NCBI GenBank assembly: GCA_036374815.1
Contig: DASUSZ010000232.1
Coordinates: 1-55,667, forward strand
DNA length: 55,667 bases
Origin: Vicinamibacterales bacterium
GTDB lineage: Bacteria > Acidobacteriota > Vicinamibacteria > Vicinamibacterales > UBA2999
Reading direction: 5' to 3'
The notes beneath the pieces are model-generated. The model saw nothing but the letters and a program-made list of their open reading frames with translations, was not told the origin of the DNA and did no database searches. The position numbers and the translations under genes are program-made. Of the stretch, positions 6,939 through 55,667 are shown one piece after another. Within the stretch, counting starts at the first letter, position 1, and each line of letters opens with the position of its first letter.

Positions 6939-6964
6939 CAATGACCGCGTGATAGGCAACGGCA

Positions 6965-21612: not shown

Positions 21613-21615
21613 ACC

Positions 21616-23276: not shown

Positions 23277-23327
23277 ATTCCGAGAACCCAAATCCGAGAT
23301 CCGAAATCGAATCTATACTGCTCCCCA

Positions 23328-24710
<1,383 letters not shown>

Positions 24711-32720: not shown

Positions 32721-35700
32721 TCGCCGGGTTCGGCGGCGGTCTGATCTCGCACACCTATCTCGAGGAGGAGGCGCTGCCCGCGCTCGAACGCGCGCGGATC
32801 GCGGTGTTCGAGCGCCGGTTTGCGCGGTGGTGGGAGCGTGCCTCTGCTTCACTCGGTCCGGCATCGAGCGTCCGCGCCATCGCGGACGTCGCGGTGCTGC
32901 CGCTGCTGGAGGTGCTCGAGATCGGACGGCCTGCCTTGTCGGCGCTCGACGGCGCGCTGATCGCGCCAATGCCCGCGATACGCAGCATCTTGTTGATCAA
33001 TTCGTGGGCAGATACGCCGGATTCGATCTGGCGGCAGGCGGTTCGCGCCGGCGTGGCCGAGCGGCACTCGTGGGCGATCGTCTGCAACGGACGATCGCTG
33101 CGCATCATCGATTGCACGCGATCGTGGTCGAGAGCAGCAATCCACTTCGACTTCGAGCAGCTGGTCCTCAGTCCGAAAGGCGTGACGGTGTTGTGGATGC
33201 TGGCGCGGGCGCTCGCGGGGTCGGCCGCCTCATTGCGACAGCACGTCGATGCATCCGACGCGCGCGCATCGCGCGTCTGCCGCTCGCTCGGTGACGGCGT
33301 GCTGGCGGCGCTGCCGGCCTTGGCGACCGCTCTGGCGATCGCGCCGCGGCAGCACGTGTACCGCTCGGCGGCCTTCGATCAGTCACTCATGCTCGTGTAT
33401 CGCATCTTGTTCCTGCTCTTCGCCGAAGCGCGCGCTCTCGTGCCGGTCTGGAACGATGTGTATCGCGACGCCTATACGGTGGAGGCGCTGCTGCGAGCAT
33501 CGCAGCGATCGCCGGCACGCGCGGACTCGGCACGATTGTGGAAGTCATTCCAGGCCATTTCCCGTCTCGCTCACGCAGGTTGCCGCGCGGGCGATCTGGA
33601 TGTGACCGCCTTCAACGGCCGGTTGTTCTCTCCCCGCCACGCGCCGCTGGTCGAGCAGCGCAAGGTATCCGACGCCGTCATGCGCGAGGTGCTACAGGCG
33701 CTGGCGACCGAACAGACAGCGCAGGGCCGGCGGCGCATTTCGTATCACGATCTTGGCGTCGAGCAGCTTGGTTCTGTCTACGAACGCGTGCTCGAGCACG
33801 AACCCTCTTGGTCCGGTGCGGCCGTTGTCTTGACTCGAACGTCGCAGCAACGCAAGAGCACCGGCAGCTTCTACACGCCGCAGGCACTTACGGAATTTCT
33901 GGTGCGGCGAACGCTCGCGCCGGTCGTCGACGGACGAAGCGCCGACCAGATTCTGCGGCTGCGCGTCGTCGATCCCGCGATGGGCAGCGGCGCCTTTCTC
34001 GTGGCCGCGTGCGTGTACCTGGCCGAGTGCTGTGAGCACGCGCTGATTCGCGACGGCCGGTTAACGGCGGCGGAGGTCACCACTTCGGATCGCGCCTCGT
34101 TGCGACGGCAGGTGGCCGAGCGCTGTTTATACGGCGTCGATCTGAATCCAACCGCCGTGCAGTTGTCGCGCCTGTCGCTCTGGTTGACAACGCTCGCCGC
34201 CGATCGGCCGCTGACGTTTCTCGATCACCACCTCGCCGCCGGCAACAGCCTGATCGGCGCGCGGCTCGGCGATCTGTCGCGGCCGCCGGGATCCCGCACC
34301 GGCAGCTCGCCTGTCAGGCTGCCGTTGTTCGACGATCAGAACGCGGAAGAGGTCTCCGCGCGCGTTCTGCCGGTTCGTCTGCGTCTGTCGACCGCTTCCG
34401 ACTCGATCGCGATCGTCAAGGACAAGGAGCGGGCGATGCAATTGCTCGCGTCGCAAAACGGTCCGCTCGCCAAATGGTCGGCCGCCGCCGACGCGTGGTG
34501 CGCGGCGACGTTGTGGCCGGGACCGCCGCCATCCGCCGGTGTGGTCGGCGAATGGATAGCCGCCGCAACTGGCAGCCAGACGACGCTGCCGGCCGGTCAA
34601 TTGAGCGCTTCGCTTCAGCGCGCGCGTGAAATCGCCGCATCGCATTCCGCCTTCCATTGGGAGCTCGCGTTCCCCGAAGTGTTCTTCGACGCCGGCGGAC
34701 ATCCAGCCGCGGACGGCGGCTTCGACGCGGTCATCGGCAACCCGCCGTGGTCGATCGTGCAGGCTTCGAAAGGCTATCGCAGCCGCACGACCGGGCATCC
34801 GAACAGCTATCAGCTGTTTCTCGATCGCGCGCTGCAGCTGGCACGACGCGGCGGCCGCATCGGATTGATCCTGCCGTCAGGCATCGCCACGGATCATGGC
34901 AGCGCAGCGCTGCGGCGCCGGCTGCTCGAACGAACGACGATCGATACGTGGATCGGCTTCGACAATCGCAGCCGGATCTTTCCGATCCACCGCAGCGTGC
35001 GGTTTGTGGTGCTGGCAACGAGCAACGCGGGCTCGACCGAGGCCTTGCGGTTTCGCTGCGGCCTCACCGACGTTGCGGATCTCGATCGCGACGGCGAACC
35101 GCTCTCCGTGTCGCGATCGCGAATCGCCGCGTGGAGTCCTCGGCATTTGACGATCCCGGAGGTCACCAACCGAACGGCGCTCGGCATTCTCGCCGGCATC
35201 TCCGATCGCGTGCCGGCGCTCGGCGACCGCAGTGGATGGAACGTGCACTTCGGCCGCGAGCTGAACGCGACCGATGACCGGCACAGCTTCGTGCCGCTCG
35301 GCTCCCGCCGCGGCTTGCTGCCGATCGTCGAGGGCAAGCAGTTGTCGCCGTTCCGGATCGACGTCAATCGCTCGACGCACGGCGTCGCGGGCAAGACGGC
35401 GCGGGAGCGAATTGCCTACCGCGAAGTGGCGAGCGCCACCAACAAGCTGACGCTGATCGCGGCGATGCTGCCCGCGAACGTCATCTCGACGCATACGGTT
35501 TTCTGTCTGAAAACCAATCTCGACCGGGACTCGCAGTGGTGTCTGCTTGCTCTGCTCAACAGCCTGGCTGCGAACTACCTGGTGCGCCTGAACGTGACCA
35601 CTCACGTGACGGCGGCCGCGATGTCGCGCCTGCGCGTGCCGCGTCCCGTGCAAGGCTCCCGTGACTTCGCGCGCCTCGTCTCTCTCGCGCGCTCGCTGGC

Positions 35701-35869
35701 ATCAACCGGCGTCGACGCCAACGTAACCGCCTACGCCGCCCTCAACGCCCTCGCCGCGCGCCTCTACGGTCTCACGCGCGACGAATACGCATTCATCCTC
35801 GACACCTTCCCGCTGATCCCGAAGTTGCAGCGTGAGTGCTGCTTAGCAGCTTTGGCTCCCGCTACCTGA
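32699..35869 (+). CDS. Eco57I/TaqI-type N6-adenine DNA methyltransferase with large N-terminal domain and C-terminal TRD-like domain
   Basis: FYTPQALTEFL, VVDPAMGSGAFL, YGVDLNPTAVQLSRLSLWL, FDAVIGNPPW and GGRIGLILPSG. Candidate GTG starts at 32699 or 32717 overlap the helicase stop codon (32718-32720). Confidence 0.85.
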   Translation: MAGAAPVIAGFGGGLISHTYLEEEALPALERARIAVFERRFARWWERASASLGPASSVRAIADVAVLPLLEVLEIGRPALSALDGALIAPMPAIRSILLINSWADTPDSIWRQAVRAGVAERHSWAIVCNGRSLRIIDCTRSWSRAAIHFDFEQLVLSPKGVTVLWMLARALAGSAASLRQHVDASDARASRVCRSLGDGVLAALPALATALAIAPRQHVYRSAAFDQSLMLVYRILFLLFAEARALVPVWNDVYRDAYTVEALLRASQRSPARADSARLWKSFQAISRLAHAGCRAGDLDVTAFNGRLFSPRHAPLVEQRKVSDAVMREVLQALATEQTAQGRRRISYHDLGVEQLGSVYERVLEHEPSWSGAAVVLTRTSQQRKSTGSFYTPQALTEFLVRRTLAPVVDGRSADQILRLRVVDPAMGSGAFLVAACVYLAECCEHALIRDGRLTAAEVTTSDRASLRRQVAERCLYGVDLNPTAVQLSRLSLWLTTLAADRPLTFLDHHLAAGNSLIGARLGDLSRPPGSRTGSSPVRLPLFDDQNAEEVSARVLPVRLRLSTASDSIAIVKDKERAMQLLASQNGPLAKWSAAADAWCAATLWPGPPPSAGVVGEWIAAATGSQTTLPAGQLSASLQRAREIAASHSAFHWELAFPEVFFDAGGHPAADGGFDAVIGNPPWSIVQASKGYRSRTTGHPNSYQLFLDRALQLARRGGRIGLILPSGIATDHGSAALRRRLLERTTIDTWIGFDNRSRIFPIHRSVRFVVLATSNAGSTEALRFRCGLTDVADLDRDGEPLSVSRSRIAAWSPRHLTIPEVTNRTALGILAGISDRVPALGDRSGWNVHFGRELNATDDRHSFVPLGSRRGLLPIVEGKQLSPFRIDVNRSTHGVAGKTARERIAYREVASATNKLTLIAAMLPANVISTHTVFCLKTNLDRDSQWCLLALLNSLAANYLVRLNVTTHVTAAAMSRLRVPRPVQGSRDFARLVSLARSLASTGVDANVTAYAALNALAARLYGLTRDEYAFILDTFPLIPKLQRECCLAALAPAT

Positions 35870-43339: not shown

Positions 43340-46159
43340 ATGAACCCGTGGGACCAGTTTTCCGGGGCCAACGCGGGGTATGTCTACGAGTTGTTCGAGC
43401 GTTATCAGCGCGATCCCTCCTCCGTCGACGAGGCCACGCGCCGGGCGTTTGCTACCTGGACTCCCTCGGAACCCGATTCACCGCAGGCACTCCAGGCACC
43501 GAGCGCGCCGCAGGCGCCTGTCGAAGCCGGCATTGCCGCGTTCAACCTTGCTGAGTCGATTCGACGATTCGGCCACCTCGCCGCGCGGCTCGATCCGCTG
43601 GGCTTCCACGATCCGATCGGCGATCCGTCGCTCGCTCCGCAGTCGCACGGCCTGACCACCGACACGCTGAAGCAGCTGCCCGCATCGATCGTGTCGGGCC
43701 CCGCCGCCAAGGGATCGGCGAACGCGTTCGAGGCGATCGCGAAACTGCGGCAGATCTATTGCTCGACCACCGGACACGACTACAACCACGTGTTCGTGCC
43801 CGATGAGCGCGTGTGGCTGCGCCAGGCCGTCGAGTCCGGCCAGTTCCGTCCGCCCAACGATCCGATCGACAGCAACGAGCTGCTCGATCGCATCACCGAG
43901 GTCGAGACGTTCGAGCGGTTCCTGCACCGCACGTTCCCGGGCAAGACGCGTTTCTCGATCGAGGGCCTCGACCTGATGGTGCCGATCCTCGACGAGATCG
44001 TGCACGACGCGGCCGACAGCGGCGTGCAGCACGTGATGATCGCGATGGCGCATCGCGGGCGGCTCAACGTGCTCGCGCACATCCTGCAGAAGCCGTATGC
44101 GCAGATCCTCGCGGAGTTCAAGGATCCGATCCTGAAGGATCGCCTGCGCGTCGACCTCGGCTGGATGGGCGACGTGAAGTACCACGCCGGCGCCCGCATC
44201 GAAGCGCAACCCGATGGCTTGCCGAAGCAGGTGGTCATCTCGATGCCGCCCAACCCGAGCCACCTCGAAGCGGTCGACCCGGTGCTGAACGGCATGGCGC
44301 GCGCCGCGGCGACGACGGCGGATCGGCCGGGCGCGCCGATCGTCGACAAGGGCAAGGTGCTGGCGATCCTGATTCACGGCGACGCCGCCTTCCCCGGCCA
44401 GGGCATCGTCGCGGAAACGCTGAACCTGTCGCGGCTCGACGGCTACGACGTTGGCGGCATCATCCACATCATCGCCAACAACCAGCTCGGATTCACCACC
44501 GACCCCGACGAGTCGTACAGCACCAGTTACGCAAGCGGCCTGGCGCGCGGCTTCAAGATTCCCATCACGCACGTCAACGCCGACGATCCCGAGGCGTGCA
44601 TCGAAGCCGCTCGCCTGGCAATCGCCTACCGGCAGCGGTTCAAGCTCGATTACCTGATCGATCTGGTGGGCTACCGGAAGTACGGCCACAACGAAGGCGA
44701 TGAGCCCGCGTTCACACAGCCGCAGGTGTATCAGATCGTTGCCGCCCACCCCAGCGTGCGCGAGAAGTACGCGAAGAGGCTGATCGAGTCGGGTGCGATC
44801 ACGCAGGAGAAGGCCGACGCCCTGGTACAGTCGAAGATGGCGGAGCTCGAGTCCGCCTATGCGGCCGTCAAACCGGAACAGGATTACATTCCGCCGGTTC
44901 CCGAAGTGCCGCCGAGCGGCGCCGCCAAGAAGGCGCGCACCGCCGTCGCGCTGGACCAGCTGACCGCCATCAACAACGACCTGATGTCGGTGCCCGAAGG
45001 CTTCACGATCCATCGCAAGCTCGAACGCGGCCGCGAGCGCCGCAAGGCGATGTTCAACTCGCCGTCCGAGCGATCGATCGACTGGGCTGCGGCCGAGGAG
45101 CTGGCGCTGGCGACGATTCTCGCCGACGGCGTGCCGATCCGCTTCACCGGCGAGGACGTCGAGCGGGGCACGTTCAGCCATCGCCACGCGGTGTATCACG
45201 ACGCGGTCAGCGGCGAGGAACACGTCCCGCTGCAGACACTGCGGCAGGCAAGGGCGTCGTTCGAGATCCGCAACAGCCCGCTGTCGGAATACGCGTGCGT
45301 CGGCTTCGAGCTCGGTTACAACCTGCAGGAGCCCGCGCGCCTCGTGCTCTGGGAAGCGCAGTACGGCGACTTCATCAACGGCGCGCAGATCATCCTCGAC
45401 GAGTACCTGACGTCGGGCCGCGCCAAATGGGGCATGGCGCCGTCGCTGGTGTTGCTGTTGCCGCACGGCTACGAAGGCCAGGGGCCGGATCATTCGAGCG
45501 CGCGGCTCGAGCGGTTCCTGAACGCCGCCGCCGACACCAACATCCGCATCGCCAACTGCACGACGGCCGCGCAGTACTTCCACCTGTTGCGGCGCCAGGC
45601 GATGTTGCTGACGACGGATCCCCTGCCGCTGGTCGTGATGACGCCGAAGAGCCTGCTGCGGCATCCATTCACCGCATCGACTCCGGCGGAGCTCGCCGAG
45701 GGATCGTTCCAGCCGGTCATCGACGACGAAACCGCAGCGGCGCAGGCGTCAAAGGTCCGCCGGATCGCGTTCTGCAGCGGCAAGGTCGCCGTCGATCTAC
45801 TGACCAGCGAGCGCCGCAAGGAAAATCCCAACGTCGCGATCGTGCGCGTCGAGCAGCTTTATCCGTTCCCGGAGGAGGCGATCCGCGCGACCATCGAGCG
45901 CTACTCGAACGTGCGCGAGGTCTGCTGGGTGCAGGAAGAGCCGGAGAACATGGGCGCGTGGGAATTCGCGCGGCCGCTGCTCGAATCGATCGTCGACGGC
46001 AAGCAGCCGCTGCGCTACATCGGCCGCTCGCGCAACTCGAGCCCGTCGGAAGGCTCATCGAGCTGGCACGCGGCCAACCAGCGCGCCATCGTCGATCAGG
46101 TATTTGAAGCGAAGACAGAAACGCGCGAGCTCGATCGCGTCCTGTCCAAACAAATCTAA
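43340..46159 (+). CDS. sucA: 2-oxoglutarate dehydrogenase E1 component
   Basis: 939 aa. Characteristic blocks include GHLAARLDPLG, RFSIEGLD, MAHRGRLNVL, HGDAAFPGQG, GYRKYGHNEGDEP and LLPHGYEGQGPDHSS. Confidence 0.95.
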   Translation: MNPWDQFSGANAGYVYELFERYQRDPSSVDEATRRAFATWTPSEPDSPQALQAPSAPQAPVEAGIAAFNLAESIRRFGHLAARLDPLGFHDPIGDPSLAPQSHGLTTDTLKQLPASIVSGPAAKGSANAFEAIAKLRQIYCSTTGHDYNHVFVPDERVWLRQAVESGQFRPPNDPIDSNELLDRITEVETFERFLHRTFPGKTRFSIEGLDLMVPILDEIVHDAADSGVQHVMIAMAHRGRLNVLAHILQKPYAQILAEFKDPILKDRLRVDLGWMGDVKYHAGARIEAQPDGLPKQVVISMPPNPSHLEAVDPVLNGMARAAATTADRPGAPIVDKGKVLAILIHGDAAFPGQGIVAETLNLSRLDGYDVGGIIHIIANNQLGFTTDPDESYSTSYASGLARGFKIPITHVNADDPEACIEAARLAIAYRQRFKLDYLIDLVGYRKYGHNEGDEPAFTQPQVYQIVAAHPSVREKYAKRLIESGAITQEKADALVQSKMAELESAYAAVKPEQDYIPPVPEVPPSGAAKKARTAVALDQLTAINNDLMSVPEGFTIHRKLERGRERRKAMFNSPSERSIDWAAAEELALATILADGVPIRFTGEDVERGTFSHRHAVYHDAVSGEEHVPLQTLRQARASFEIRNSPLSEYACVGFELGYNLQEPARLVLWEAQYGDFINGAQIILDEYLTSGRAKWGMAPSLVLLLPHGYEGQGPDHSSARLERFLNAAADTNIRIANCTTAAQYFHLLRRQAMLLTTDPLPLVVMTPKSLLRHPFTASTPAELAEGSFQPVIDDETAAAQASKVRRIAFCSGKVAVDLLTSERRKENPNVAIVRVEQLYPFPEEAIRATIERYSNVREVCWVQEEPENMGAWEFARPLLESIVDGKQPLRYIGRSRNSSPSEGSSSWHAANQRAIVDQVFEAKTETRELDRVLSKQI

Positions 46160-46222
46160 TGACGGCACGGCCGCTTGCGTTGTCGCGGCCTCCGGAGAGC
46201 GTGGTAGAGGCAGTTAGCTGAT

Positions 46223-47485
46223 ATGTCGACCAACATCGTCGTCCCCGAACTTGGTGAGTCCGTCGTCGAAGCGCGCGTCGCGAAGTGGTTGAAGAAGCAG
46301 GGCGACAGCGTCACCGCCGGCGAGGCGCTGGTCGAGCTCGAGACCGAAAAGATCGATCTCGAAGTCAGCGCCGATCGCGCCGGCGTGCTCGCGAACATCA
46401 AGCACCAGGAAGGCGCGGACGTGAAGGTCGGAGAGGTGCTCGCCGTTCTGGAAGAGAGCACAAACGGCGCCACGCCGGCTGCGCCGGCGGTTCCAGAGGT
46501 TCCAAAGGTTCCAGAGGTTCCAAGGGTTCCAGCGGTTGCAAAAGGTCACGTTCAAGGTTCGGCGGAGAAGAAAGCGACGCCGACTGCGAAGAACGTTGCT
46601 AAAGCTCACGACGTGAGCCTGGATTCGGTCGAGACGTCGGGCAACCGGGTGACCAAGGGTGACGTGCTCAAGGCCGCTTCGCCCCAAGCGCCAAGCCCCA
46701 AGCCCGATGCGCCGGCGCCAGCCGCAAGCCCGCAAGCCCGTAGCCCGCAAGCCCGTCCCGTGAGCCCGCACGCCCGATCCGGCGAGCGCAGCGAGCGCCG
46801 CGAGCGCATGACCAAGCGCCGCGCGACGATCGCGCGACGATTGGTCGAAGCGCAGCAAACCGCGGCGATGCTGACCACCTTCAACGAGGTGGACATGTCG
46901 TCGGTGATGCAGCTGCGCGAACGGCGCAAGGAAGCCTTCACCAAGAAGTTCGGCGTCAGCGTCGGCATCGCGTCGTTCTTCGTGAAGGCCGCGATTGGCG
47001 CGCTGAAGGCATTCCCGCAGATCAACGCCGAAATTCAGGGCGACGAGATCGTCTACAAGGACTACTACGACATCGGCATGGCGGTCGGCGCCGAGGGCGG
47101 CCTGGTCGTGCCGGTGATTCGCGATGCCGATCGCATGGGCTTCGCCGACATCGAGCTGTCGATCCGCGACTTCGCGAAGCGCGCGCAGGACGGCACGTTG
47201 ACGCTCGAGGATCTGAAGGGCGGCACGTTCACGATCACCAACGGCGGCGTGTTCGGGTCGTTGATGAGCACGCCGATCCTCAACCCGCCGCAGGTCGGCA
47301 TTCTGGGTCTTCACAAGATCGCCGAGCGTCCGGTCGCGATCAACGGCCAGGTGGTGATCCGGCCGATGATGTATCTCGCGCTCAGCTACGATCACCGCAT
47401 CGTCGATGGCCGCGAGGCGGTGCAGTTCCTCGTCAAGATCAAGGACTACATCGAGGATCCGGCCTGGATGCTGCTCGAAGGCTGA
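46223..47485 (+). CDS. sucB: 2-oxoglutarate dehydrogenase E2 dihydrolipoyllysine-residue succinyltransferase
   Basis: Lipoyl domain ([13 protein letters not shown]), repeat-built linkers and catalytic [10 protein letters not shown]. It lies directly downstream of sucA. Confidence 0.95.
46489..46542. repeat. 6 x 9-bp tandem repeat GGTTCCARR inside the first sucB linker (encodes [16 protein letters not shown])
   Basis: GGTTCCA cores at 46489, 46498, 46507, 46516 and 46525, with a degenerate copy at 46534. Confidence 0.85.
46721..46760. repeat. about 5 units of the 8-bp repeat CCCGCAAG / CCCGTAG inside the second sucB linker (encodes [14 protein letters not shown])
   Basis: Units are gccgcaag, cccgcaag, cccgtag, cccgcaag and cccgtccc. 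The unit is nearly identical to the intergenic array at 21581-21612. Confidence 0.75.
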
Positions 47486-48183
47486 GCAAGCGCGCGGAAT
47501 ACGATCAGGTGCCCGGCCCACGCGGCCAGCACCATCACCGCCGGCAGCAGCGTGTACGGCATCCAGGTGACCCAGACGTTGAGACGATCGGGCCCGAAGT
47601 AGGCGAACACCGGCGTGGACAGAATCGCCACGCCGACGATGTTCGCCAGCAGGATCGTGCCGATCACGTTCCACGCCATCACGATCCATCGCGGCACTCG
47701 CGTCGCCATCATCGTCACGCCCAGCGCGAGCGCGGTCGCGCCCGTGAAGATGTCGAAGTTCATGCCTGAGTAGCTCATTTGCACCGGCATCAACCCTTCT
47801 TCATGGGCGCGGTGCATGGCAAGCTCCAGCGGCAGCCGGAACGACTGAAACAGCACCAGCGATGCGAGCGTCGCGCCGCGCGCCAGCCGGTCGCCGACGC
47901 GCGAGCGCGCGATCGTCACACCGAGCACGACGATCGCCACCACCATGATCGCGAACGGCAGCGGCGGACCATCGCGCGGCAGCAGCAGGCCGGCAAAGGC
48001 AGCGGCGCTGACGATCGCGATCCAAGTCAGCGCGCCGGCCAGGAATCGCCGCTGGAGCGAGGCGGTTTGGCGGGGCGAGTCGCCCACCGACGCCGATGCG
48101 CGCCGCACCAACATCGCCGCGCCGGCAACAATGGCGAGGGCGAGCACGTAAAAGCACGCCTGCAGGAAGGTCGAGCCCGGCAT
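47446..48183 (-). CDS. hypothetical polytopic membrane protein
   Basis: The start at 48183 gives [26 protein letters not shown], followed by 6-7 hydrophobic segments. Its 3' end overlaps sucB by 40 nt (convergent). Confidence 0.5.
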
Positions 48184-48218
48184 GATGCGAATGTCCACGG
48201 TGGTATCGTATCCAGCGG

Positions 48219-48980
48219 ATGCCCCGCACTCCATCTCCGCGACAGCTCAAGGACATGATCGCGGAGCGCGAAGCGTCGCGCGGCCTGCTGATCGCGTTCG
48301 AAGGCCCCGACGGATCCGGCAAGACGACGCAACGCAAGCTGTTGAAGCGGTGGCTCGAAAGCCGCAATCACCAGGTCGTCTCGACACGGTGGGCGTCGTC
48401 CACGCTGGTCAAGCCGATGCTCAAGGTGCGGAAGAAGATCCGCACGCTCTCGGTCGAGGAATATTCGCTGCTGCACGCGGTCGATTTCCGGCACCGCGTC
48501 GAGACGTCGATCCTGCCGGCGCTCTGGGCCGGCAAGACCGTGCTCGCCGATCGCTACCTGTTCACCGCGCTGGCGCGCGACGCGGCGCGAGGGCTCGACC
48601 TCGACTGGCTGCTGCACGCCTACTCGCCGCTGCTGTGGCCAGATCTCGTCATTTATTTTTCAATGACGCCCGAGGATTCACGGCGGCGCATCGCCTCGAC
48701 GCGCGCGCCGCGGTTTTACGAGGCCGGGCAGGACGTCACCGGCATCGAGGATCCGCTGGCGAGCTACGGCCGCTTCATCGATCGCGTCGTCACGGAGTAC
48801 GACAATTTGTCGGTGGTGTTCCAGTTCGTCACCGTCGATGCCGGCGATGCGGTCTACCGGCAGCACACCCGCGTGCGCGAGCTCGTCGAGAAGGCCGGCA
48901 GGCGCCCGTGGACCGAGTTCAGCAAGGACGCCGTCGCAGAATGGCTGACCAAGTCAAAAGCAAATATCCCGGACGCCTGA
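48219..48980 (+). CDS. thymidylate kinase-like P-loop kinase (divergent)
   Basis: LLIAFEGPDGSGKTT P-loop, ADRYLFT (DRY/F-like) and the PDLVIYF lid-proximal block. The usual EPGGT and AYQ blocks are not recognisable. The start may be the internal ATG at 48255. Confidence 0.65.
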   Translation: MPRTPSPRQLKDMIAEREASRGLLIAFEGPDGSGKTTQRKLLKRWLESRNHQVVSTRWASSTLVKPMLKVRKKIRTLSVEEYSLLHAVDFRHRVETSILPALWAGKTVLADRYLFTALARDAARGLDLDWLLHAYSPLLWPDLVIYFSMTPEDSRRRIASTRAPRFYEAGQDVTGIEDPLASYGRFIDRVVTEYDNLSVVFQFVTVDAGDAVYRQHTRVRELVEKAGRRPWTEFSKDAVAEWLTKSKANIPDA

Positions 48981-49615
48981 TCGCGATCGACGGCACGCGC
49001 GGCAAGGACGTCGCGCTCGCCGCGAGCGACATCGTCGCGAAGCTGAAGGAGCACGGCGTCGAGTGCGCGGTCAGCCGGTGGGATGCATCAGGCCTGTTCA
49101 CCGATCTTGCCGCGGGCGCGAGGACCGCGCGCGACGTGTCGATTCGATCGTTGTCGCTCGTCTACGCAGCGGATCTGGCGTTCCGGATGCGATGGGAAAT
49201 CCGGCCCGTGCTCGAGGCCGGCGGCGTCGTCGTCGCCGCGCCGTACGTCGACACCGCAGCCGCGTTCGGCGCGATCTGCGGGCTCGACGAGGACTGGCTG
49301 CGCGAGCTGATGCGATTCGCGCCGCCGCCGAATTACCGCGGCGTGGTCGACGAACGGAAGATCAACCGGCCCTGGAAGCGGCGCTTCGATCGCGGCTATG
49401 CGGAATACGGCGCGATGATGCTCGGGGACGCGGCGCCGAAGCGCGCCTCGAAGGCGGCGCGGCGAAAGATGATGGCGATGCTCGAGCGCGCGCGCGGCCG
49501 CACGGTCTTTCACCTCACCAACAAGGGCATCGGCGCATTGGCGAAAGCGCTTACTGACAGCCGGACGGCCGCGGCGCGCCGGTCTGTTTCGCGACCTCGC
49601 AGCGGACGTAAGTAA
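48941..49615 (+). CDS. thymidylate kinase-like paralogue with degenerate P-loop (IAIDGTRGKDV)
   Basis: The ATG at 48941 overlaps the upstream Tmk-like gene by 40 nt. RLIAIDGTRGKDV sits where FEGxDGxGK[ST]T is expected, and the spacing of AAPYVD matches ADRY. Its 3' end overlaps the convergent CotH gene by 65 nt. Confidence 0.45.
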   Translation: MADQVKSKYPGRLIAIDGTRGKDVALAASDIVAKLKEHGVECAVSRWDASGLFTDLAAGARTARDVSIRSLSLVYAADLAFRMRWEIRPVLEAGGVVVAAPYVDTAAAFGAICGLDEDWLRELMRFAPPPNYRGVVDERKINRPWKRRFDRGYAEYGAMMLGDAAPKRASKAARRKMMAMLERARGRTVFHLTNKGIGALAKALTDSRTAAARRSVSRPRSGRK

Positions 49616-50780
49616 TGCGCGCCTGCGGAAACGCCAGCAGCGTTTCGCGCGCCGCCGTGTAGTCGGCGTTCGAATACGGCTTCAGCGCATCGGCCAGCAT
49701 CGCGTCGTTGATCATGTCGAGCTGACGCTGCATTTCCTGGCGCAGCCAGTCGGACGCTGAATCGGCCGCCTCCGAGAGGAAACTGAAATACTGCGATTGG
49801 TAGGCGGGCAGCTCCAGCGTCTTGCGCGTCAGCACGTTCTCTTCGTTCCGCGTCGTGATGCCGTAGTCCGGCTGCAGGAACGCGTTGTCCTCGTCCCAGG
49901 CGATGAACACGTGGCTCTGGCTGTTCTCGAGCCGGTAGAAGTAGAAGTTGTTCATCCCGTCGTAGCCATTGAAGCCGTCGTTCTGCGCCACGAAGTTCTG
50001 CGCCGCGATGTAGCGCACGAACGCGCCCAGGTCGAGCCGCGGTCCAACGGTTGCTTCGAACGAAGATGACGGCGTGTCGTTGACCAGCCGCACCAGTTCT
50101 TCGATCGGCCCCCAGATCACCGATTCGGCGTGGCTTTCGTTGGTCTTGATGTCGAAGCGCGCCTTGTACGGCGTCAGCGCCGCGCCTTCATAGCCGAACC
50201 GCCACGGGCTGCCGAGCACGTAGTTGTATTCGAACAGGTAGCCGTCGTTCTGGATGTCGTCGCCGATGCTGCCGAACACCCGGCCCATCATGGTCTTGTC
50301 GACCGACTCGACGAGGCCGTAAAGACCCGCGTACTCGCCGTTGATGTAGAGCCGCGCGTGCGTCTCGCGCGGCGCCGGAATGCCGAGGCGCGCGAAGAAC
50401 CGCATCGTGACCGTTTCCTTGACGCCGGTCTGGTCCTGCGTCAGGTTGTCGAGCACGAACGACTTGAGGCCGAGGAACTGCTGGCCGCTCGAATAGCGAT
50501 CGAAATCGACACGCAGGCCCGGCTTGGTACTGCTGCGCGAGCCCAGCCCGCGTGAGCGGATGCCGACGTTGCGAACGGTGATGCCGTTCCAGGTGACGTC
50601 GGCCGGGTAATAGGTGTTCTCCTGGAACGCCGCCTTCAGCTTGGCCCAGTCGGACGAGTTCAACCACAGGTCGATTCGCTGCAGCACGTCGGGATTGAAG
50701 AAGTCATCCGACGTCTGCGCGAATGCGGAGCCGGCAATCCCGATCGCGACGACGGCGGCGACGAGCGTTCGCGGCACCAT
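49551..50780 (-). CDS. CotH kinase family protein, secreted
   Basis: Signal peptide followed by the typical CotH N-terminal pattern (DLWLNSSDWAKL ... YYPADVTWNG ... NVGIRSRG ... KPGLRVDFDRY). Confidence 0.85.
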   Translation of the reverse strand: MVPRTLVAAVVAIGIAGSAFAQTSDDFFNPDVLQRIDLWLNSSDWAKLKAAFQENTYYPADVTWNGITVRNVGIRSRGLGSRSSTKPGLRVDFDRYSSGQQFLGLKSFVLDNLTQDQTGVKETVTMRFFARLGIPAPRETHARLYINGEYAGLYGLVESVDKTMMGRVFGSIGDDIQNDGYLFEYNYVLGSPWRFGYEGAALTPYKARFDIKTNESHAESVIWGPIEELVRLVNDTPSSSFEATVGPRLDLGAFVRYIAAQNFVAQNDGFNGYDGMNNFYFYRLENSQSHVFIAWDEDNAFLQPDYGITTRNEENVLTRKTLELPAYQSQYFSFLSEAADSASDWLRQEMQRQLDMINDAMLADALKPYSNADYTAARETLLAFPQARITYVRCEVAKQTGAPRPSGCQ

Positions 50781-50788
50781 GGATTCAA

Positions 50789-52069
50789 TCAGAACACAAT
50801 ATTCAGCCGAACCAAGCCCGACCAGTACGAGGTGGTGCCGACGATCGGCGTGCGCGCGGGATCTTCGATGTCCTCGTGGATCGCGTTGAGGATCACGCGC
50901 GTCCAGCGGCTGGTCATCCAGTTGACGCCGGCGGTGAACACGGTGTTGCTGTTCGGCGTCAGGAACTCAGAACGCGGATTGGTGAACGACGTGCCTTCCT
51001 TGCTGACGCTTTCGAAGCCAAGCCGTTCGTAGCGAACCGCGAGTTCGATCGCGCCGGGCCCGCCCTTGTGCAGCGGCCGGCGCGGGTTGACGTTGTTGTC
51101 TTTATCCTCTCCCGTCAGGAACCAGGTGCCGGCCACGTACCATGCGGTGCCGACGAAGTCGGAGAGATCGGCGTCGCGGTTGCTCTGTTCCTTGCGCTGC
51201 TCGCGCGACTGCAGCCATTCCGCCTTGAGCGACGCCGGACCCGGCGTCCATTCGAACTGCGCGCCGAAGCGTTGACGCCGGCCCTTCACGTAGACGCGCT
51301 CGAAGAAGTCCTCGGTCCCCCAGAACGATTCGCCGCGCAGGCTGTTGAGGCCCTCGGGTATCTGCGAATTCGTGTACGCGACGCCGATGTTGGCGCTCTG
51401 CAGGCGGCCGACCCCGGGCACGAGCCGGAGCAGATCGCCCGTCACGCGGAAGGCGATCGACGGCCCGACACCTTCGAGGTCCTCGCCTTCGCGGGCGAAC
51501 TGCGGCTCGTTCGACTCGCCGTTGTCACCGTCGTCATCGAACATGCCGGCTTCGTAGGTAAGGCGGCCGATTTCACCAAACGCCATCACGCCGCGATCGC
51601 GGCCCGGCGCGATCGCCGTCGACCCGAGCGCGCGATACGCGAAATCCAGGTCGCTGACGCCGGTCGTCTGCTCGAGGCCAAACGGCATCTTGAAGCGGCC
51701 GCCGATGACGCGCACCCTGTCGAACGTGCGCCATTCCAGGTAGACGTCCTTCCACTGGCCGAACTGCACCTTGCCGCTGCCGTCTTCCTGCTCGACCTCT
51801 TCGATCTCGCGCTCGATCTCCCAATCGAAATGGCGGGTCAGCTCACCCTGCAATCCGATGCGCGCCGTGCGCAGGTTGAACATGTCCTCGCCAATCTCGG
51901 GGTCGAACGTGCGCCATTCGGTCAAGACGCGGCCTTTGATGTCGACGGTGAGGTCGTCGCCGAAGACAATCCGCGGCCGGTCGTTCCACACGATGCCCTT
52001 TTCGTCCTGCGCGGCCGCGGGCGCGGCGGCGAAGGCGATCAGGAGTGCCACGATCAGGGGTCGATTCAT
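50789..52069 (-). CDS. phosphate-selective porin O/P (OprO/OprP)-like outer-membrane porin
   Basis: Signal peptide MNRPLIVALLIAFAAAPAAAQ, alternating beta-strand pattern, an RIGLQGEL-type block and a C-terminal aromatic residue (LNIVF). Confidence 0.65.
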   Translation of the reverse strand: MNRPLIVALLIAFAAAPAAAQDEKGIVWNDRPRIVFGDDLTVDIKGRVLTEWRTFDPEIGEDMFNLRTARIGLQGELTRHFDWEIEREIEEVEQEDGSGKVQFGQWKDVYLEWRTFDRVRVIGGRFKMPFGLEQTTGVSDLDFAYRALGSTAIAPGRDRGVMAFGEIGRLTYEAGMFDDDGDNGESNEPQFAREGEDLEGVGPSIAFRVTGDLLRLVPGVGRLQSANIGVAYTNSQIPEGLNSLRGESFWGTEDFFERVYVKGRRQRFGAQFEWTPGPASLKAEWLQSREQRKEQSNRDADLSDFVGTAWYVAGTWFLTGEDKDNNVNPRRPLHKGGPGAIELAVRYERLGFESVSKEGTSFTNPRSEFLTPNSNTVFTAGVNWMTSRWTRVILNAIHEDIEDPARTPIVGTTSYWSGLVRLNIVF

Positions 52070-52980
52070 GCGGTTCGGTCTCCGGGCAGGCGTGTCGCCG
52101 CGGCGCCGGCCTTCACGCTCAATTCTTGATACGACATATTCAGCTGTTTGACCAGCGCGGGCTCGTGAATGACGACCGAGACCTCGCGGCGGAAATCGAG
52201 GCTCAACGTCGACAGCGCCGTGCTGCCCAGCACCGCGCGCGACTCGTCGATGATCATCATCTTGCCGTGCGGCAGCAGGCCGCCCATCGGCTGCTTCCCC
52301 AGCACGGAGACGGTGATGCCCTCGGCGCGGCGATCGCGCAGCAGCGCGACGACGTCGGGGTCTGAAAGCTTGTGATCGAGGATGCGGATGCTGTGCTTCG
52401 CGCTCTCGATCAGCGCGCGGATGTCGCGGCGCGATCGCTCGGGCCCGACGATCAGCCGCCGGCCGACCGGCCGGCGCGGCGGCAGCGGCACGCCTGCCGC
52501 GTCGGCCTTGAACAGCGTCAACAGCCCTTTCACCACCGACGGATCAGGAGTGATCAGCACCGCGTCCCACGTCCGCGTGAAGCACTTGCGCGTCGGGTTG
52601 AGCGTCGTGATGATCGCCGTCGCGTCGTCGGCGACGAGATACTTGGCGTGATACTTCACGACCGGATCGGCGTAGCGCGTCACGACCGCGCCCATTTCCT
52701 CGAGCGCGCCCCACAACTTCTTGAGCCGCTTCTTGCCGCCTTTGGCGCGCTTGGTCAGGATCGCTTCGACTTCGCAGCCGCGTTCGAGCGCGGCGGCCAG
52801 CGCATCGAGCACCGAAAAATCATCGCAGCGGAACAACGACAGGATCAGCCGCTTCTTCGCGGCCCCGATCACGCCGAGGAGGGCCGCTTTACGTTCCGCC
52901 GGATCGAGGACGAGGCGCTCGCCGGCTTTCCCGGCGCGCGCACCTTTGCTAACTCCTTTTCGGCGGCGACCAGGAGACAT
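52066..52980 (-). CDS. phospholipase D superfamily protein with two HKD motifs
   Basis: HxK motifs YHAKYLVADD and PHGKMMIIDE, each followed by a G(S/T)xN-like segment. A 4-nt overlap links it to the downstream porin gene. Confidence 0.85.
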   Translation of the reverse strand: MSPGRRRKGVSKGARAGKAGERLVLDPAERKAALLGVIGAAKKRLILSLFRCDDFSVLDALAAALERGCEVEAILTKRAKGGKKRLKKLWGALEEMGAVVTRYADPVVKYHAKYLVADDATAIITTLNPTRKCFTRTWDAVLITPDPSVVKGLLTLFKADAAGVPLPPRRPVGRRLIVGPERSRRDIRALIESAKHSIRILDHKLSDPDVVALLRDRRAEGITVSVLGKQPMGGLLPHGKMMIIDESRAVLGSTALSTLSLDFRREVSVVIHEPALVKQLNMSYQELSVKAGAAATRLPGDRTA

Positions 52981-54073
52981 TCTTGATGCCCTTCTTGCCT
53001 TCGCCCATCAGCTGCGCGCTCAAGTCTTCGAGCGAATCGGTCGGCTTGAGCGTCGTCAGGTATTTCGCAGTGGCTTCATCGCCCTGCGAAACTTCGCGCG
53101 GCTCGAACAGGATGCCGTTCACCGCGAACACGTGATGGACGTGGGCCATCGGAAAGTCGCGCTCTTCGGCCACGATCTCGACCATCATCTGGCGCGGACG
53201 CTCGGAGCTGAACACGTTCAGGATCGGGATCATCGCGCACAGGAACAACGTGCCGAGCCCGGCGACCGCGAGTGCGCCCAGGCCCGCCGCCATGCCAAGG
53301 CCCATCAGGATGAAGAGAATCGTGATGTCGCGCGCGTCTTCGACCGGCGTGCGAAAGCGGATGATGCTGGCGGCGCCGGCAATGCCGAAGGCGCGCGCCA
53401 CCGAGTTGCCGATGATGATCATCATGATCGCGCCCGAGATGCACAGCAGCACCTGCGCCTGATCGAGCGCCGGGTTGTAGGTGCGCTCGTGGCGATACTG
53501 GCGATGCACGATGGTGACGAGCATGCCGATCACCGCCGAGGCAACCAGCTTGGCGAGCTCGAACAACGGGTTCGACAGAATCAGCGGGCTTGACGGCGCG
53601 TCGGTCACGCCGGGGATCACTCCGGGCGCGGCCGATTCCGGCAGGCCGAGGCCGGGCCAGTTGACGCCAACGCCCACCAGCGCGCCGCCGACGATCGCGA
53701 CGGCGATGCCGGTCCACACCCGATCCCACGCGATCGTCTTCGTCTTCGCCTCGACCAGCGTGTCGACAACTTCGAGCACGCGCGTCAGCAGCGACAGCTC
53801 GAGCAGCTCCCTGACCCGGGGATTCGGCGACACCAGCGTGAAGCGGCGATTCAGGCGCTGCGCCGAGGTGTGGCCGCGCACCAGCGCGCGGATACCGGCG
53901 CTGTCCGCGGTCGGCACCCCGCGCAGGTCGATGACGACGTGCGCATACCCCGACTTGAAGACCTCCTGGATCCGGCGCTCGAGCTCCTCGGCGGGACCAC
54001 CGGCCACCAGCGCTTCCTGGGGCGAGAGAAGAAAACGATCGGCCTTGCTGCCCTTCTCGGACGCGGTCGGCAT
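52949..54073 (-). CDS. STAS domain fused to a DUF4956-type membrane domain
   Basis: The N-terminus (HVVIDLRGVPTADSAGIRALV ... FTLVSPNPRVRELLELS) is STAS-like. The C-terminal membrane region (GIAGAASIIRFRTPVEDARDITILFILMGLGMAAG) matches the DUF4956 signature as I recall it. Confidence 0.65.
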   Translation of the reverse strand: MPTASEKGSKADRFLLSPQEALVAGGPAEELERRIQEVFKSGYAHVVIDLRGVPTADSAGIRALVRGHTSAQRLNRRFTLVSPNPRVRELLELSLLTRVLEVVDTLVEAKTKTIAWDRVWTGIAVAIVGGALVGVGVNWPGLGLPESAAPGVIPGVTDAPSSPLILSNPLFELAKLVASAVIGMLVTIVHRQYRHERTYNPALDQAQVLLCISGAIMMIIIGNSVARAFGIAGAASIIRFRTPVEDARDITILFILMGLGMAAGLGALAVAGLGTLFLCAMIPILNVFSSERPRQMMVEIVAEERDFPMAHVHHVFAVNGILFEPREVSQGDEATAKYLTTLKPTDSLEDLSAQLMGEGKKGIKNVSWSPPKRS

Positions 54074-54123
54074 TGGACGAGTGGCGAAACGGTACCACGT
54101 ATGCTAAAGCTGGGCAAAGGTTG

Positions 54124-55032
54124 ATGCGATTCACTCGCCCCGGGCGCGCGGTCATGCCCCTCGTCATCTTTCTCGCGGCGGTGTCGTCGTGTTCCAGTCC
54201 CTCGGGTCCAACCGGGGGCGGGGGTGGGGGCGGGGGCGGCGGTCCGACCGGCCAAACCGTGACGATGATTGCGGTCGGCGACATCGGGCTGTGCGGAAGC
54301 CCCGCCGTCGCGCAGACCGCCAAACTCGTCGCCGGCCTCGAGGGCGAGCTGTTGCTCGCCGGTGACATCGCGTACTTCCAGGGGACCGCGGCAAATTTCC
54401 GGGACTGCTTCGATCCGTTCTGGGGTCAGTTTCGATCGCGCTGGCACCCCGTGCCGGGCAATCACGAGTACGAGAGCCCTGGCGCCGCTCCGTACTTCGC
54501 GTATTTCGGCGACGCCGCGGGTCCTCCAAACGTCGGGTATTACTCGATCACCGCCGGTGACTGGTTGATCCTGATGCTCAACTCGAACCTGCCCGCGACC
54601 CAGGGATCGCCGCAGTACGAATTCGCGCGCGTCGCGCTCGATCGCCAGCTGACGCCGTGCACGATGGCGGTGTGGCATCACCCGCGCTTCTCATCGGGAC
54701 CGAATGGCAACACGCCGGCGATGCGCGACATGTGGGCGCTGCTCGAGAGCAAGCGCGCCGAGATCGTGTTCAGCGGCCACGATCATTTGTACGAGCGATT
54801 CGCGCGGCAGTTGTCCGATGGCACCGCCGATCCCGTCAACGGCGTGCGGCAGTTCATCGCCGGCACCGGCGGTGCCGAGCTCTATAACTTCGTCCGCGCC
54901 TCGGCGAACTCCGAGGAGCGCATCATGAAGTTCGGCGTCGTGAAATTTACGCTTCGCCCCGCGCAGGTCGACTGGGAATTCCTCGGCATCGACGGCTCGG
55001 TCAACGATCGCGGCCTCGATACGTGCCGCTAG
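54124..55032 (+). CDS. calcineurin-like metallophosphoesterase, secreted or lipoprotein-like
   Basis: AVGDIG, LLAGDIAY, PGNHEY, WHHP and SGHDHLYER metallophosphoesterase motifs. The N-terminus LAAVSSCSS is followed by a Gly9 linker. Confidence 0.8.
   Translation: MRFTRPGRAVMPLVIFLAAVSSCSSPSGPTGGGGGGGGGGPTGQTVTMIAVGDIGLCGSPAVAQTAKLVAGLEGELLLAGDIAYFQGTAANFRDCFDPFWGQFRSRWHPVPGNHEYESPGAAPYFAYFGDAAGPPNVGYYSITAGDWLILMLNSNLPATQGSPQYEFARVALDRQLTPCTMAVWHHPRFSSGPNGNTPAMRDMWALLESKRAEIVFSGHDHLYERFARQLSDGTADPVNGVRQFIAGTGGAELYNFVRASANSEERIMKFGVVKFTLRPAQVDWEFLGIDGSVNDRGLDTCR
54214..54236 (+). other. canonical G-quadruplex motif G5-C-G5-T-G5-C-G5 on the coding strand
   Basis: Read directly from the sequence. 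It encodes the Gly-run of the metallophosphoesterase linker. Confidence 0.7.
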
Positions 55033-55075: not shown

Positions 55076-55667
55076 ATGAAATTACTGTCCGCCCTCGCCG
55101 CCATCATCACGTTAAGCGCTACCGTACTGGCGCAACAGAAACCACCGGCGTTCGCGCCGATTCCAGCGCCGCCCAATGTCGCCAAGCCGCCCGCAGACGC
55201 CGCGAAGACTGCTTCGGGCCTTGCATCGATCGTGCTCCAGGCGGGCACCGGCAAGACCAGGCCCGGCGCGACCGACATGGTCACCGTCAATTACACCGGC
55301 TGGACCACGGACGGAAAAATGTTCGACAGCTCGTTTGCGCGCAGCGCGCCCAGCACGTTCCCGCTCGATCGCGTCATCAAGGGTTGGGGCGAAGGCGTGC
55401 AGTTGATGGTCGTCGGCGAGAAGCGGCGCTTCTGGATTCCGCAGGAGATCGCCTACAACGGCATGGCCGGACGCCCGGCGGGCATGCTGGTGTTCGACAT
55501 CGAGCTGCTCGATTTTTCGCCGTCGCCAAGCACGCCGCCACCAGACGTCGCGGCACCGCCCAAGGACGCCAAGCGCACGGCATCCGGTCTCGCCTACAAG
55601 TCGCTTCGCGAAGGCAAAGGCGGCCCGCACCCCACCGAACGCAGCATGGTCACCGTGCACTACACCG
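55076..55667 (+). CDS. FKBP-type peptidyl-prolyl cis-trans isomerase, secreted, tandem FKBP domains (3' end outside window)
   Basis: This gene is not in the ORF track because no stop lies within the window. My translation from the ATG at 55076 gives the signal peptide MKLLSALAAIITLSATVLA. It continues with VTVNYTGWTTDGKMFDSS...VIKGWGEGVQLMVVGEKRRFWIP...LVFDIELL. A second TVHYT marks the start of another FKBP domain. Confidence 0.85.
   Translation, partial: MKLLSALAAIITLSATVLAQQKPPAFAPIPAPPNVAKPPADAAKTASGLASIVLQAGTGKTRPGATDMVTVNYTGWTTDGKMFDSSFARSAPSTFPLDRVIKGWGEGVQLMVVGEKRRFWIPQEIAYNGMAGRPAGMLVFDIELLDFSPSPSTPPPDVAAPPKDAKRTASGLAYKSLREGKGGPHPTERSMVTVHYT

Follow-up and report, generated by a model that had tools for sequence, protein, structure and literature searches.

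A conserved STAS-DUF4956, porin, CotH and phosphoesterase gene cluster of Vicinamibacterales, most likely an envelope module handling phosphate or polyphosphate

A gene cluster was analysed in a Vicinamibacterales (Acidobacteriota) soil bacterium on a stretch of 55,667 nucleotides (contig DASUSZ010000232.1 of assembly GCA_036374815.1, positions 1 to 55,667), hereafter the window. Four genes on the minus strand encode, in transcription order, a membrane protein with a STAS and a DUF4956 domain (the anchor), an enzyme of the phospholipase D (PLD) superfamily, a Porin_O_P porin and a CotH kinase-fold protein; a metallophosphoesterase is encoded divergently (Table 1). Translation of the open reading frames (ORFs) reproduced exactly the coordinates and junctions of an original prediction made on this DNA, i.e. 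a 32-nt overlap between anchor and PLD, a 4-nt overlap (ATGA) between PLD and porin, and an 8-nt gap between porin and CotH. The 32-nt overlap is real and no start-codon artefact, because homologues of the PLD protein begin with the same MSPGRR peptide; they are 7 aa shorter owing to an internal indel. The start assigned to the phosphoesterase by the ORF caller (TTG 54073) is too early. A conserved ATG at 54124 is most likely the true start, and the two transcription units would then diverge from an intergenic region of 50 bp, as had been predicted. Every domain scored above its curated Pfam cut-off (STAS, DUF4956, PLDc_2 in two stretches, Porin_O_P, CotH and Metallophos), in agreement with the five domain calls made earlier for the minus-strand genes. 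The localisation of the porin, CotH, phosphoesterase and PLD proteins was deduced from their N-termini only.

Table 1. Position of the module genes, their domains and the promoter elements in the window
Feature	Position (nt)	Residues (aa)	Strand	Evidence or remark
Anchor protein, STAS-DUF4956, 374 aa	52949-54073		-	Pfam STAS and DUF4956
STAS domain, predicted cytoplasmic	53741-54037	13-111	-	Pfam, AlphaFold2 (AF2)
Extra transmembrane (TM) helix		116-138		AF2 model
Disordered loop, predicted periplasmic		139-168		AF2 model
DUF4956/MgtC-like membrane core, five helices		169-288		AF2 model
ACT-like beta-alpha-beta-beta-alpha-beta domain	52967-53194	294-369	-	AF2 model
PLD, two-HKD PLD-superfamily enzyme, soluble, 304 aa, no signal peptide or TM helix	52066-52980		-	PLDc_2 97 bits in two stretches
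Porin_O_P outer-membrane porin, Sec signal MNRPLIVALLIAFAAAPAAA followed by Q	50789-52069		-	Pfam 111.8 bits
CotH kinase-fold protein, Sec signal MVPRTLVAAVVAIGIAGSAFA followed by Q	49551-50780		-	Pfam 138.4 bits
Metallophosphoesterase of the purple acid phosphatase (PAP) type, predicted lipoprotein, MRFTRPGRAVMPLVIFLAAVSS followed by C and a Gly-rich linker (lipobox VSS, then C)	54124-55032		+	Pfam Metallophos
Divergent promoter region, 50 bp	54074-54123			Footprinting
Operon promoter, -35 TTGCCC	54112-54117		-	17-nt spacer to extended -10
Operon promoter, extended -10 TGGTACCGT	54089-54097		-	About 8-nt 5' leader
Putative phosphoesterase promoter TGCTAAAGC, back-to-back	54102-54110		+	Inferred
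TMK1, dTMP-kinase-family P-loop kinase, archaeal-like subtype	48219-48980		+	Pfam Thymidylate_kin 2e-21
TMK2, degenerate TMK1 paralogue	48941-49615		+	BLASTP vs TMK1, 32% identity over 118 aa, E=3e-13

A search with the anchor protein across one genome per GTDB species returned at least 461 relatives. The best 80 of these loci all encoded full-length STAS fusions (44-88% identity), all from Vicinamibacteria or Acidobacteriota; close homologues of 83-93% identity came from Vicinamibacterales metagenome-assembled genomes (MAGs) of soil and freshwater. Single loci of relatives are cited by L numbers. Partner genes were located by tblastn with the window proteins as probes, by which very divergent partners may be undercounted, and 59 species-level loci out of 81 fused loci had enough flanking DNA. 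Near the anchor of these well-flanked loci, the porin was found in 52, CotH in 47, the phosphoesterase in 44 (in several positions), the PLD in 42 and a dTMP-kinase-like pair in 32, while four had none of the probed partners. The module occurred in 19 gene orders and orientations among the 59 loci, at identities down to 44%. Within the class below 55% identity (28 loci), porin and CotH were present together in 22, the phosphoesterase in 19 and the PLD in 15. The predicted association of these genes was thus found again in 81 fused loci and eight unfused contexts, in many gene orders. Public MAG records carrying this locus at 75-93% protein identity, some of them fully syntenic, also stand under unrelated phyla (L002, L005, L008 and L010, Acidimicrobiia; L019 and L081, Bifidobacteriaceae; P0122, Cyanobacteria); these are probably mis-binned or mislabelled assemblies.

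An exhaustive search covering 1.84 billion representatives placed the full STAS fusion in a handful of 50%-identity clusters, and unfused proteins of 255-290 aa, matching residues ~115-374 of the anchor, were far more numerous. The unfused relatives were sampled in eight contexts, a small sample with the source names Terriglobia and Solibacter. These contexts carry the same partners, i.e. DUF4956, PLD, Porin_O_P, CotH, a protein with Pur_ac_phosph_N and Metallophos domains, and a Thymidylate_kin gene followed by an ORF of ~200 aa without Pfam match. The porin was present in seven of the eight distinct contexts (absent from L089). Other partner sets were also incomplete: L086 showed only the porin and the phosphoesterase, and L087 and L090 lacked a purple acid phosphatase. 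L084 and L085, which both derive from a single unfused relative, have a stand-alone STAS gene of 115 aa beside the module. Fused anchors were seen in no group but Vicinamibacteria, and the unfused module occurred in other Acidobacteriota, in line with the predicted acquisition of the STAS domain by the membrane protein. Since the Vicinamibacteria fusion joins proteins that are separately encoded as neighbours in L084 and L085, it argues, as a Rosetta-stone fusion, that the STAS domain acts on or with the membrane protein. In the unfused loci L082 and L083 (positions 2234-7939), a second pair of Porin_O_P and CotH genes lies directly upstream of the module and is preceded by YceI, a HisKA sensor kinase and an OmpR/PhoB-type response regulator.

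The AF2 model of the anchor was built from an alignment of 83 sequences and had a mean pLDDT of 77.5. The STAS domain scored 53.3 bits with PF01740 (gathering score 22.6) and stayed below the cut-off of TIGR00377 (43.3 vs 53.45 bits); by Foldseek, the N-terminal domain matched the anti-sigma antagonists 3F43, 1VC1, SpoIIAA and RsbV with a TMt of 0.75-0.84. PF16316 (DUF4956) scored 38.2 bits against a gathering score of 30.6, covering only positions 7-113 of the 169 in the model, and a precomputed match to this family was present in all close and distant relatives. The MgtC family PF02308 scored below its gathering score (18.7 vs 31.4 bits, E=2e-3), yet the match spanned positions 1-117 of 121, i.e. 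the whole TM domain. Many relatives have a precomputed PF02308 match, marked weak in the contexts looked up. Weaker than the STAS matches was a Foldseek match to the C-terminal domain of Mycobacterium tuberculosis MgtC (2LQJ; E=8e-3, TMt 0.59, 19% identity), ranked 20 amid generic ferredoxin-like and ACT folds; the 2LQJ and ACT matches appear to stem from the C-terminal domain of the model, aligned ranges not being reported in the Foldseek output. A profile of the unfused membrane family gave no match to MgtC (2LQJ) when compared by sequence with the PDB.

The canonical DUF4956 protein of a streptococcal pel locus, SIR_1592, consists of an MgtC-family TM domain and an ACT domain (10.1101/2024.04.20.589940), an architecture matched by the multi-TM core and ACT-type C-terminal domain of the anchor model. 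Judged by this shared architecture, the anchor would therefore be the same kind of protein as canonical DUF4956, with a TM helix and a STAS domain added; as modelled, it is an MgtC-like protein with a TM core and a cytoplasmic ACT-like domain. Both this MgtC/ACT nature and the dTMP-kinase-like pair at 48219-49615 are additions to the earlier reading of the locus. Given six membrane passes and a positively charged RQYRHER loop on the inside, the STAS and C-terminal domains are both predicted to be cytoplasmic. The most conserved feature of the anchor is the loop ARAFGIAGAAxIIRFRTPVxDxxD, in which R239, F240, R241, T242, P243 and D249 were invariant in the 83-sequence alignment. The model resembles members of the MgtC/SapB family (Salmonella MgtC; 2LQJ) in a multi-helix membrane domain followed by what appears to be a cytoplasmic ACT-like domain; published links of Salmonella MgtC to PhoR and to phosphate homeostasis and metabolism are summarised in 10.1101/2024.04.20.589940. 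The anchor differs from this family in its N-terminal STAS domain and extra TM helix, in its sub-threshold Pfam score and in lacking an mgtB-type ATPase partner in the module.

The STAS domain shares the anti-sigma-antagonist fold with SpoIIAA and RsbV and carries a conserved DSxG serine. The motif reads DSAG at residues 57-60, where a modelled helix (residues 58-73) starts, and a scan of 88 loci gave DS(A/S/T)G in 69; STAS proteins of the SpoIIAA/RsbV type usually have their phosphoserine at this point. The module differs from those systems in that no RsbW/SpoIIAB-type kinase was found within the cluster, and a SpoIIE-type phosphatase was seen nearby only in the Ppx subclade described below. 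A STAS domain is tethered to a membrane protein in SLC26/SulP transporters as well, but it is C-terminal in SulP and N-terminal in the anchor.

The porin matched PF07396 with 111.8 bits over a gathering score of 20.9 (E=6e-32, positions 24-350 of 370). It belongs to the same Pfam family as OprP and OprO of Pseudomonas, and the module genes likewise lie beside phosphate-releasing enzymes. CotH matched PF08757 with 138.4 bits over 23.8 (E=5e-40, positions 1-311 of 322) and could be aligned to Bacillus cereus CotH (5JD9, 6e-14). Its D268 (in DGF) and D296 (in WDED) are the equivalents of D228 and D251 in Bacillus subtilis CotH, where their mutation inactivates the kinase (PMC7821199). Of 67 homologues, several of them truncated, 47 carry this motif pair. 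The Metallophos match of the phosphoesterase reached 40.2 bits (E=6e-10), and all five metal-ligand motifs of PAPs were found: GDIG, GDIAY, GNHE, VWHH and GHDH (templates DxG, GDxxY, GNH(D/E), VxxH and GHxH). Its PDB matches were PAPs and PAP-phytases only (6GIT, 3e-10; 1KBP). In its place, unfused relatives have either the longer Pur_ac_phosph_N and Metallophos protein or an NPP-type Phosphodiest protein, the latter filling the PAP slot in L090. TonB-dependent receptors or related outer-membrane barrels adjoin the module in several lineages.

The PLD protein contains the two predicted HKD motifs, H111xK113x4D118 and H238xK240x4D245, and two such motifs were found in 59 of 63 homologues. Its AF2 model (pTM 0.80), derived from an alignment shallow in diversity (83-92% identity) and containing some low-confidence loops, shows a compact bilobed HKD fold with neither TM helix nor amphipathic anchor. 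The Foldseek matches were led by the bacterial PLD 7E0M (1e-16) and the C-domains of PPK1 (~5e-14, TMq 0.65-0.69), followed by poxvirus F13, the PLD3/4 exonucleases and PssA. Its NCBIfam scores for cardiolipin synthases, NucT and DrmC fell far short of the cut-offs; with TIGR04265 and NF008427 (ClsA/ClsB) the protein reached 27.9 vs 290 bits and 28.2 vs 281 bits. With 7E0M and the C1-C2 domains of PPK1 it shares the two-lobed PLD fold (Foldseek E 1e-16 to 7e-13) and histidine-phosphate chemistry, as HKD enzymes and PPK1 work through a phosphohistidine intermediate. It differs from PPK1 in keeping canonical HKD motifs, which PPK1 is not known to have, and in its length of only 304 aa without the PPK1 N and H domains; no PP_kinase match was obtained in Pfam or NCBIfam. 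The original prediction had likened the protein to the PPK1 core, but the fold match to PPK1 was no better than that to ordinary bacterial PLD. Fold and sequence do not reveal the substrate.

The PLD gene lies immediately downstream of the anchor gene, on the same strand, in 57 of 57 PLD-bearing loci, and the 32-nt overlap suggests that its translation is coupled to that of the anchor. Of the 59 well-flanked loci, 17 have no PLD gene, and the majority of these 17 retain the porin and CotH. The PLD had been proposed to sit in the place of VTC as a polymerase-equivalent core. This was not supported: being optional, the PLD is no stand-in for the VTC polymerase and is better seen as an accessory enzyme.

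TMK1 has an intact P-loop (GPDGSGKTT) and a DRY motif and narrowly misses TIGR00041 (81.8 vs 83.25 bits). Its best PDB match was the archaeal-type 2PLR (6e-37), compared with ~1e-16 for bacterial Tmks. In TMK2, which falls clearly short of a dTMP kinase, the P-loop reads GTRGKD, the DRY motif is lost and the Thymidylate_kin match is weak (E=9e-3), so that the protein is likely a pseudokinase by its sequence. TMK2 is convergent with CotH, the two genes sharing 65 nt at the CotH 3' end, and in relatives it is always paired with TMK1. In rearranged loci TMK1 follows the module: it lies between PLD and phosphoesterase in L030, L034, L063 and L064, and directly after PLD in L054, L065 and L067. It also stands beside PLD in the unfused loci L087, L089 and L091, and a second PLD copy adjoins the pair in L091. 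On this gene order, the PLD and the kinase/pseudokinase pair can be read as a cytoplasmic sub-module, present in most lineages.

In a PLD-less subclade (L040, L043, L045, L047 and L052), a Ppx/GppA exopolyphosphatase joins the module. Its gene comes after CotH, in the same orientation, in L040, L043, L045 and L052, and immediately after the anchor in L047. In L040, L043 and L052 the divergent slot holds a gene for a CHAD protein; CHAD domains are polyphosphate-binding modules (PMC6537752). Going by gene content, Ppx and CHAD lend independent support to the phosphate and polyphosphate theme of the original prediction, as does the PAP-type phosphoesterase. This PLD-less variant (~6.8-16.5 kb in each locus) is arranged as divergent CHAD, STAS-DUF4956, porin, CotH and Ppx/GppA. 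A conserved ORF of 111 aa was observed downstream of it, as was an FHA-GAF-SpoIIE (PP2C) phosphatase at ~1 kb, and GlgC was observed upstream in three loci. The phosphatase could act on the STAS serine.

The 50-bp intergenic region was footprinted across 18 close relatives, and more than 60 distant relatives were inspected. Among relatives of 69-88% protein identity, a core of ~40 bp is kept and the coding DNA on either side drifts. In distant and unfused relatives, the sequence TGnTAnnnT is found again 10-20 nt before the anchor ATG. A generic sigma-70 scan of the intergenic region returned nothing; the footprint indicates that the element is an extended -10 promoter. Its distance of 10-20 nt from the ATG leaves a very short leader. 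An extended -10 at only this distance from the start codon was observed in nearly all relatives from L001 to L088, which implies that the operon mRNAs would be near-leaderless and without a Shine-Dalgarno sequence across Acidobacteriota. In some loci the compact promoter upstream of the anchor is replaced by pyrimidine-rich repeats, CCTTTT-like in L041 (~7890-8000) and L009 and CCCGCCTA/CCCACCTG-like in L064.

From their domains and predicted locations, the proteins most likely form a multi-compartment envelope module, spanning inner membrane, periplasm and outer membrane, that handles phosphate or polyphosphate, the phosphate being condensed or esterified. The best-supported division is into a core of MgtC-like membrane protein, porin, CotH and exported phosphoesterase, and an accessory cytoplasmic arm of PLD and TMK pair. 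The porin would admit phosphate-type anions (Pi, PPi, short polyphosphate or phosphoesters) to the periplasm, where the lipoprotein phosphatase and CotH would act on these anions or on envelope targets. With its STAS and ACT-like domains in the cytoplasm, the MgtC-like protein might sense phosphate status or relay it to cytoplasmic phosphoryl-transfer enzymes. These enzymes, either PLD and the TMK pair or Ppx and CHAD, might process or buffer the phosphate pool. The physiological role may well be phosphorus acquisition and homeostasis in phosphorus-poor soil, although this role is proposed tentatively. It is favoured over export because scavenging systems typically have an exported phosphatase, an uptake-type porin and TonB receptors, and because MgtC is known as a regulator, not a channel. 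The overall interpretation of the original prediction thus stood for the domains, the gene packing, the conserved association, the STAS acquisition and the phosphate theme, and was not supported for the role of PLD in place of VTC.

Several observations weigh against a phosphate-handling module. The functional statements all derive from domain families, models and gene neighbourhood. The porin differs from the Pho-regulon porins OprP and OprO in being too distant for a sequence match to any PDB chain, these two included, and in standing without a Pho box or pst genes; Porin_O_P members are not all phosphate channels, being linked in other bacteria to other anions (PMC13490349). Among the window proteins scanned there was no VTC gene, as had been predicted, and also no ppk, pst, phoU or phoBR gene; ten Pfam-annotated contexts and the recurrent neighbour families likewise showed no VTC, PPK, Pst or PhoU. 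A Pho box had been suggested for the region 54074-54123, but none was found there: no Pho-box-like direct repeat persists beyond close relatives among the 18 footprinted and more than 60 distant relatives inspected, and the conserved element is the extended -10 promoter. The two-component system of L082 and L083 is the sole one seen adjoining the module, and the runs holding the locus were soil-metagenome DNA only, with no RNA run among them. The anchor occurs without any of the six probed partners in the flanking DNA covered in 7 of 81 loci (4 of 59 well-flanked ones); L047, with Ppx directly after the anchor, is one of these. It is conceivable that TMK1 is just the housekeeping dTMP kinase. 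A periplasmic CotH kinase without obvious ATP supply is left unexplained by pure scavenging and therefore keeps an export function alive.

Under export, modelled on what has been proposed for VTC/DUF4956/CotH sets, a cytoplasmic phospho-polymer (polyphosphate or another phosphodiester-linked polymer), made by a housekeeping PPK or by the PLD and TMK-like pair, would cross the inner membrane via DUF4956 and donate phosphoryl groups to CotH, or exit through the porin to modify surface or matrix, with the PAP lipoprotein trimming it. CotH is exported with both catalytic Asp kept and would thus need an extracytoplasmic donor; in Gram-positives, the genes for CotH and DUF4956 are linked to that for a VTC-type polyphosphate polymerase (PMC7112168; 10.1101/2024.04.20.589940). 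The PPK1 C1-C2 domains are among the closest folds of the PLD model and share phosphohistidine chemistry with it, the PLD is coupled by overlap to the membrane protein, and Ppx and CHAD in sister loci point to polyphosphate chemistry. We nevertheless regard export as unlikely. Loci that dispense with the PLD mostly keep porin and CotH, no VTC was found in any locus examined, the top fold match of the PLD is the ordinary PLD 7E0M and its PPK1 likeness is generic to compact PLD folds. DUF4956/MgtC-like proteins are not known to form a channel, MgtC being known as a regulator, a conserved extracytoplasmic phosphatase is not obviously needed, and deletion of the canonical trio in Streptococcus intermedius gave no clear phenotype (10.1101/2024.04.20.589940). 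A speculative and quite improbable version would have the PLD and TMK pair make or transfer a condensed phosphate or phosphodiester at the cytoplasmic face of the MgtC-like protein, independently of VTC and PPK; the MgtC-like protein, gated by STAS and ACT, would pass it to the periplasm for CotH to use instead of ATP. If true, it would be the first mechanism for fuelling exported CotH kinases and the first function for DUF4956.

An improbable alternative, rated only slightly above that version, makes the PLD a cardiolipin-synthase or phospholipase-type lipid enzyme that works at the membrane together with the MgtC-like protein, e.g. turning over or remodelling phospholipids during phosphorus stress, the other genes being loosely linked scavenging neighbours. 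Source annotations name its homologues cardiolipin synthase, NCBIfam gave weak matches to ClsB and Cls, the best fold match is a bacterial phospholipase D with PssA also matched, and phospholipid breakdown is a textbook response to phosphorus starvation. These scores are, however, about tenfold below the Cls/ClsB cut-offs (28 vs 281-290 bits), the enzyme is small (297-304 aa) with no membrane anchor in the model, it repeatedly adjoins the nucleotide-kinase-like pair and not lipid genes, and relatives of the NucT, DrmC and PLD3/4 nuclease types match at least equally well. That the genes are neighbours by accident, or by inherited synteny without shared function, is very improbable, although the closest relatives share unrelated flanks (sucAB, FKBP and S8 peptidase) and some anchors stand alone. 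The housekeeping flanks (sucAB, FKBP) are gone below ~60% identity while the module is retained through its 19 orders and orientations and in other acidobacterial lineages, which rules out chance adjacency for practical purposes; the 32-nt and 4-nt gene overlaps also speak against it. Least credible of all is the PLD as DrmC of a DISARM-type anti-phage system. The protein does match PADLOC DrmC models (best E=1e-17), and positions 30438-35869 of the window encode DrmD-like (E=3e-74) and DrmMI-like (E=2e-105) proteins. This assignment was rejected: the NCBIfam DrmC score is 55 bits against a cut-off of 133, the PLD gene lies 16 kb from the DrmD/DrmMI-like pair and is locked to STAS-DUF4956 in all 57 PLD-bearing loci, no DrmA or DrmB was found in the window, and no other module protein matches a defence family.

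The closest known system is the CotH/VTC/DUF4956 set, named correctly in the original prediction, which is an uncharacterised accessory gene set of Gram-positive pel operons (PMC7112168), represented by SIR_1592-1594 of S. intermedius; when gene clusters were searched for the trio, it turned up nowhere but inside pel operons (10.1101/2024.04.20.589940). The S. intermedius work is the only experimental study of the Gram-positive trio that was found. Both systems pair an exported CotH with intact catalytic residues with a DUF4956 protein of MgtC-like core and ACT domain, and both are polyphosphate-linked. The Acidobacteriota module differs in that neither a VTC polymerase nor pel genes were seen in the ~90 contexts examined. 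No VTC was found in ten Pfam-annotated contexts or among recurrent neighbour families, singleton ORFs of the fused loci not all being scanned, and no Pel-type genes were seen in the window or the annotated contexts. The module further belongs to a diderm host and adds six other conserved components; its additions include Porin_O_P, the PAP-type phosphoesterase, the two-HKD PLD, the TMK-like pair, the extra TM helix and, in Vicinamibacteria, the STAS fusion; some lineages add Ppx and CHAD. No description of the module was found in the searchable literature, a search for Acidobacteria with phosphate-selective porin and CotH giving nothing relevant, and the module is rated as a variant of the CotH/VTC/DUF4956 set not previously described.

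Few bacteria are as abundant in soil as the Acidobacteriota, whose phosphorus acquisition and storage are poorly known. The module is kept in at least 80 species-level genomes of Vicinamibacteria and in other acidobacterial lineages. A function in phosphorus scavenging or polyphosphate handling at the envelope, if true, would bear on soil phosphorus cycling. It offers a diderm, pel-free version of the CotH/DUF4956 partnership, in which two widespread protein families, exported CotH kinases and DUF4956/MgtC-like membrane proteins, are tied to phosphate chemistry by an OprO/P-type porin, a purple acid phosphatase, Ppx and CHAD, and its natural variants (with or without PLD, with Ppx and CHAD, with STAS fused or separate) suggest which parts are core and which accessory. 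Use of a non-ATP donor by CotH, if it occurs, would bear on secreted kinases generally.

Other genes of the window were also recorded. At 30438-35869 (+), the SNF2 helicase scoring as DrmD overlaps the Eco57I/MmeI-type methyltransferase scoring as DrmMI, within the highest-GC stretch of the window (0.67-0.69). The ORFs after the pair encode a possible PD-(D/E)XK fragment, PanE (opposite strand) and an amidohydrolase, and no DrmA, DrmB or DrmC follows; the two genes may serve in defence as a reduced DISARM-like or a type IIG-like pair. Two 2-oxoacid dehydrogenase sets are present, E2 and E3 (lipoamide dehydrogenase) at 20127-23040 (-) and sucA/sucB at 43340-47485 (+), and a sigma-54 response-regulator activator is encoded at 23175-24710. 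A multi-pass membrane protein of 262 aa without Pfam or NCBIfam match (47446-48234, -) overlaps the 3' end of sucB and the start of TMK1, and is kept beside the module in L015, L023-L025 and L058. On the other side, a secreted FKBP-type peptidyl-prolyl isomerase (55076-55666, +) runs off the end of the window, where it appears to begin a second FKBP repeat; its L001 homologue has 271 aa, and the gene adjoins the module only in relatives above ~60% identity.

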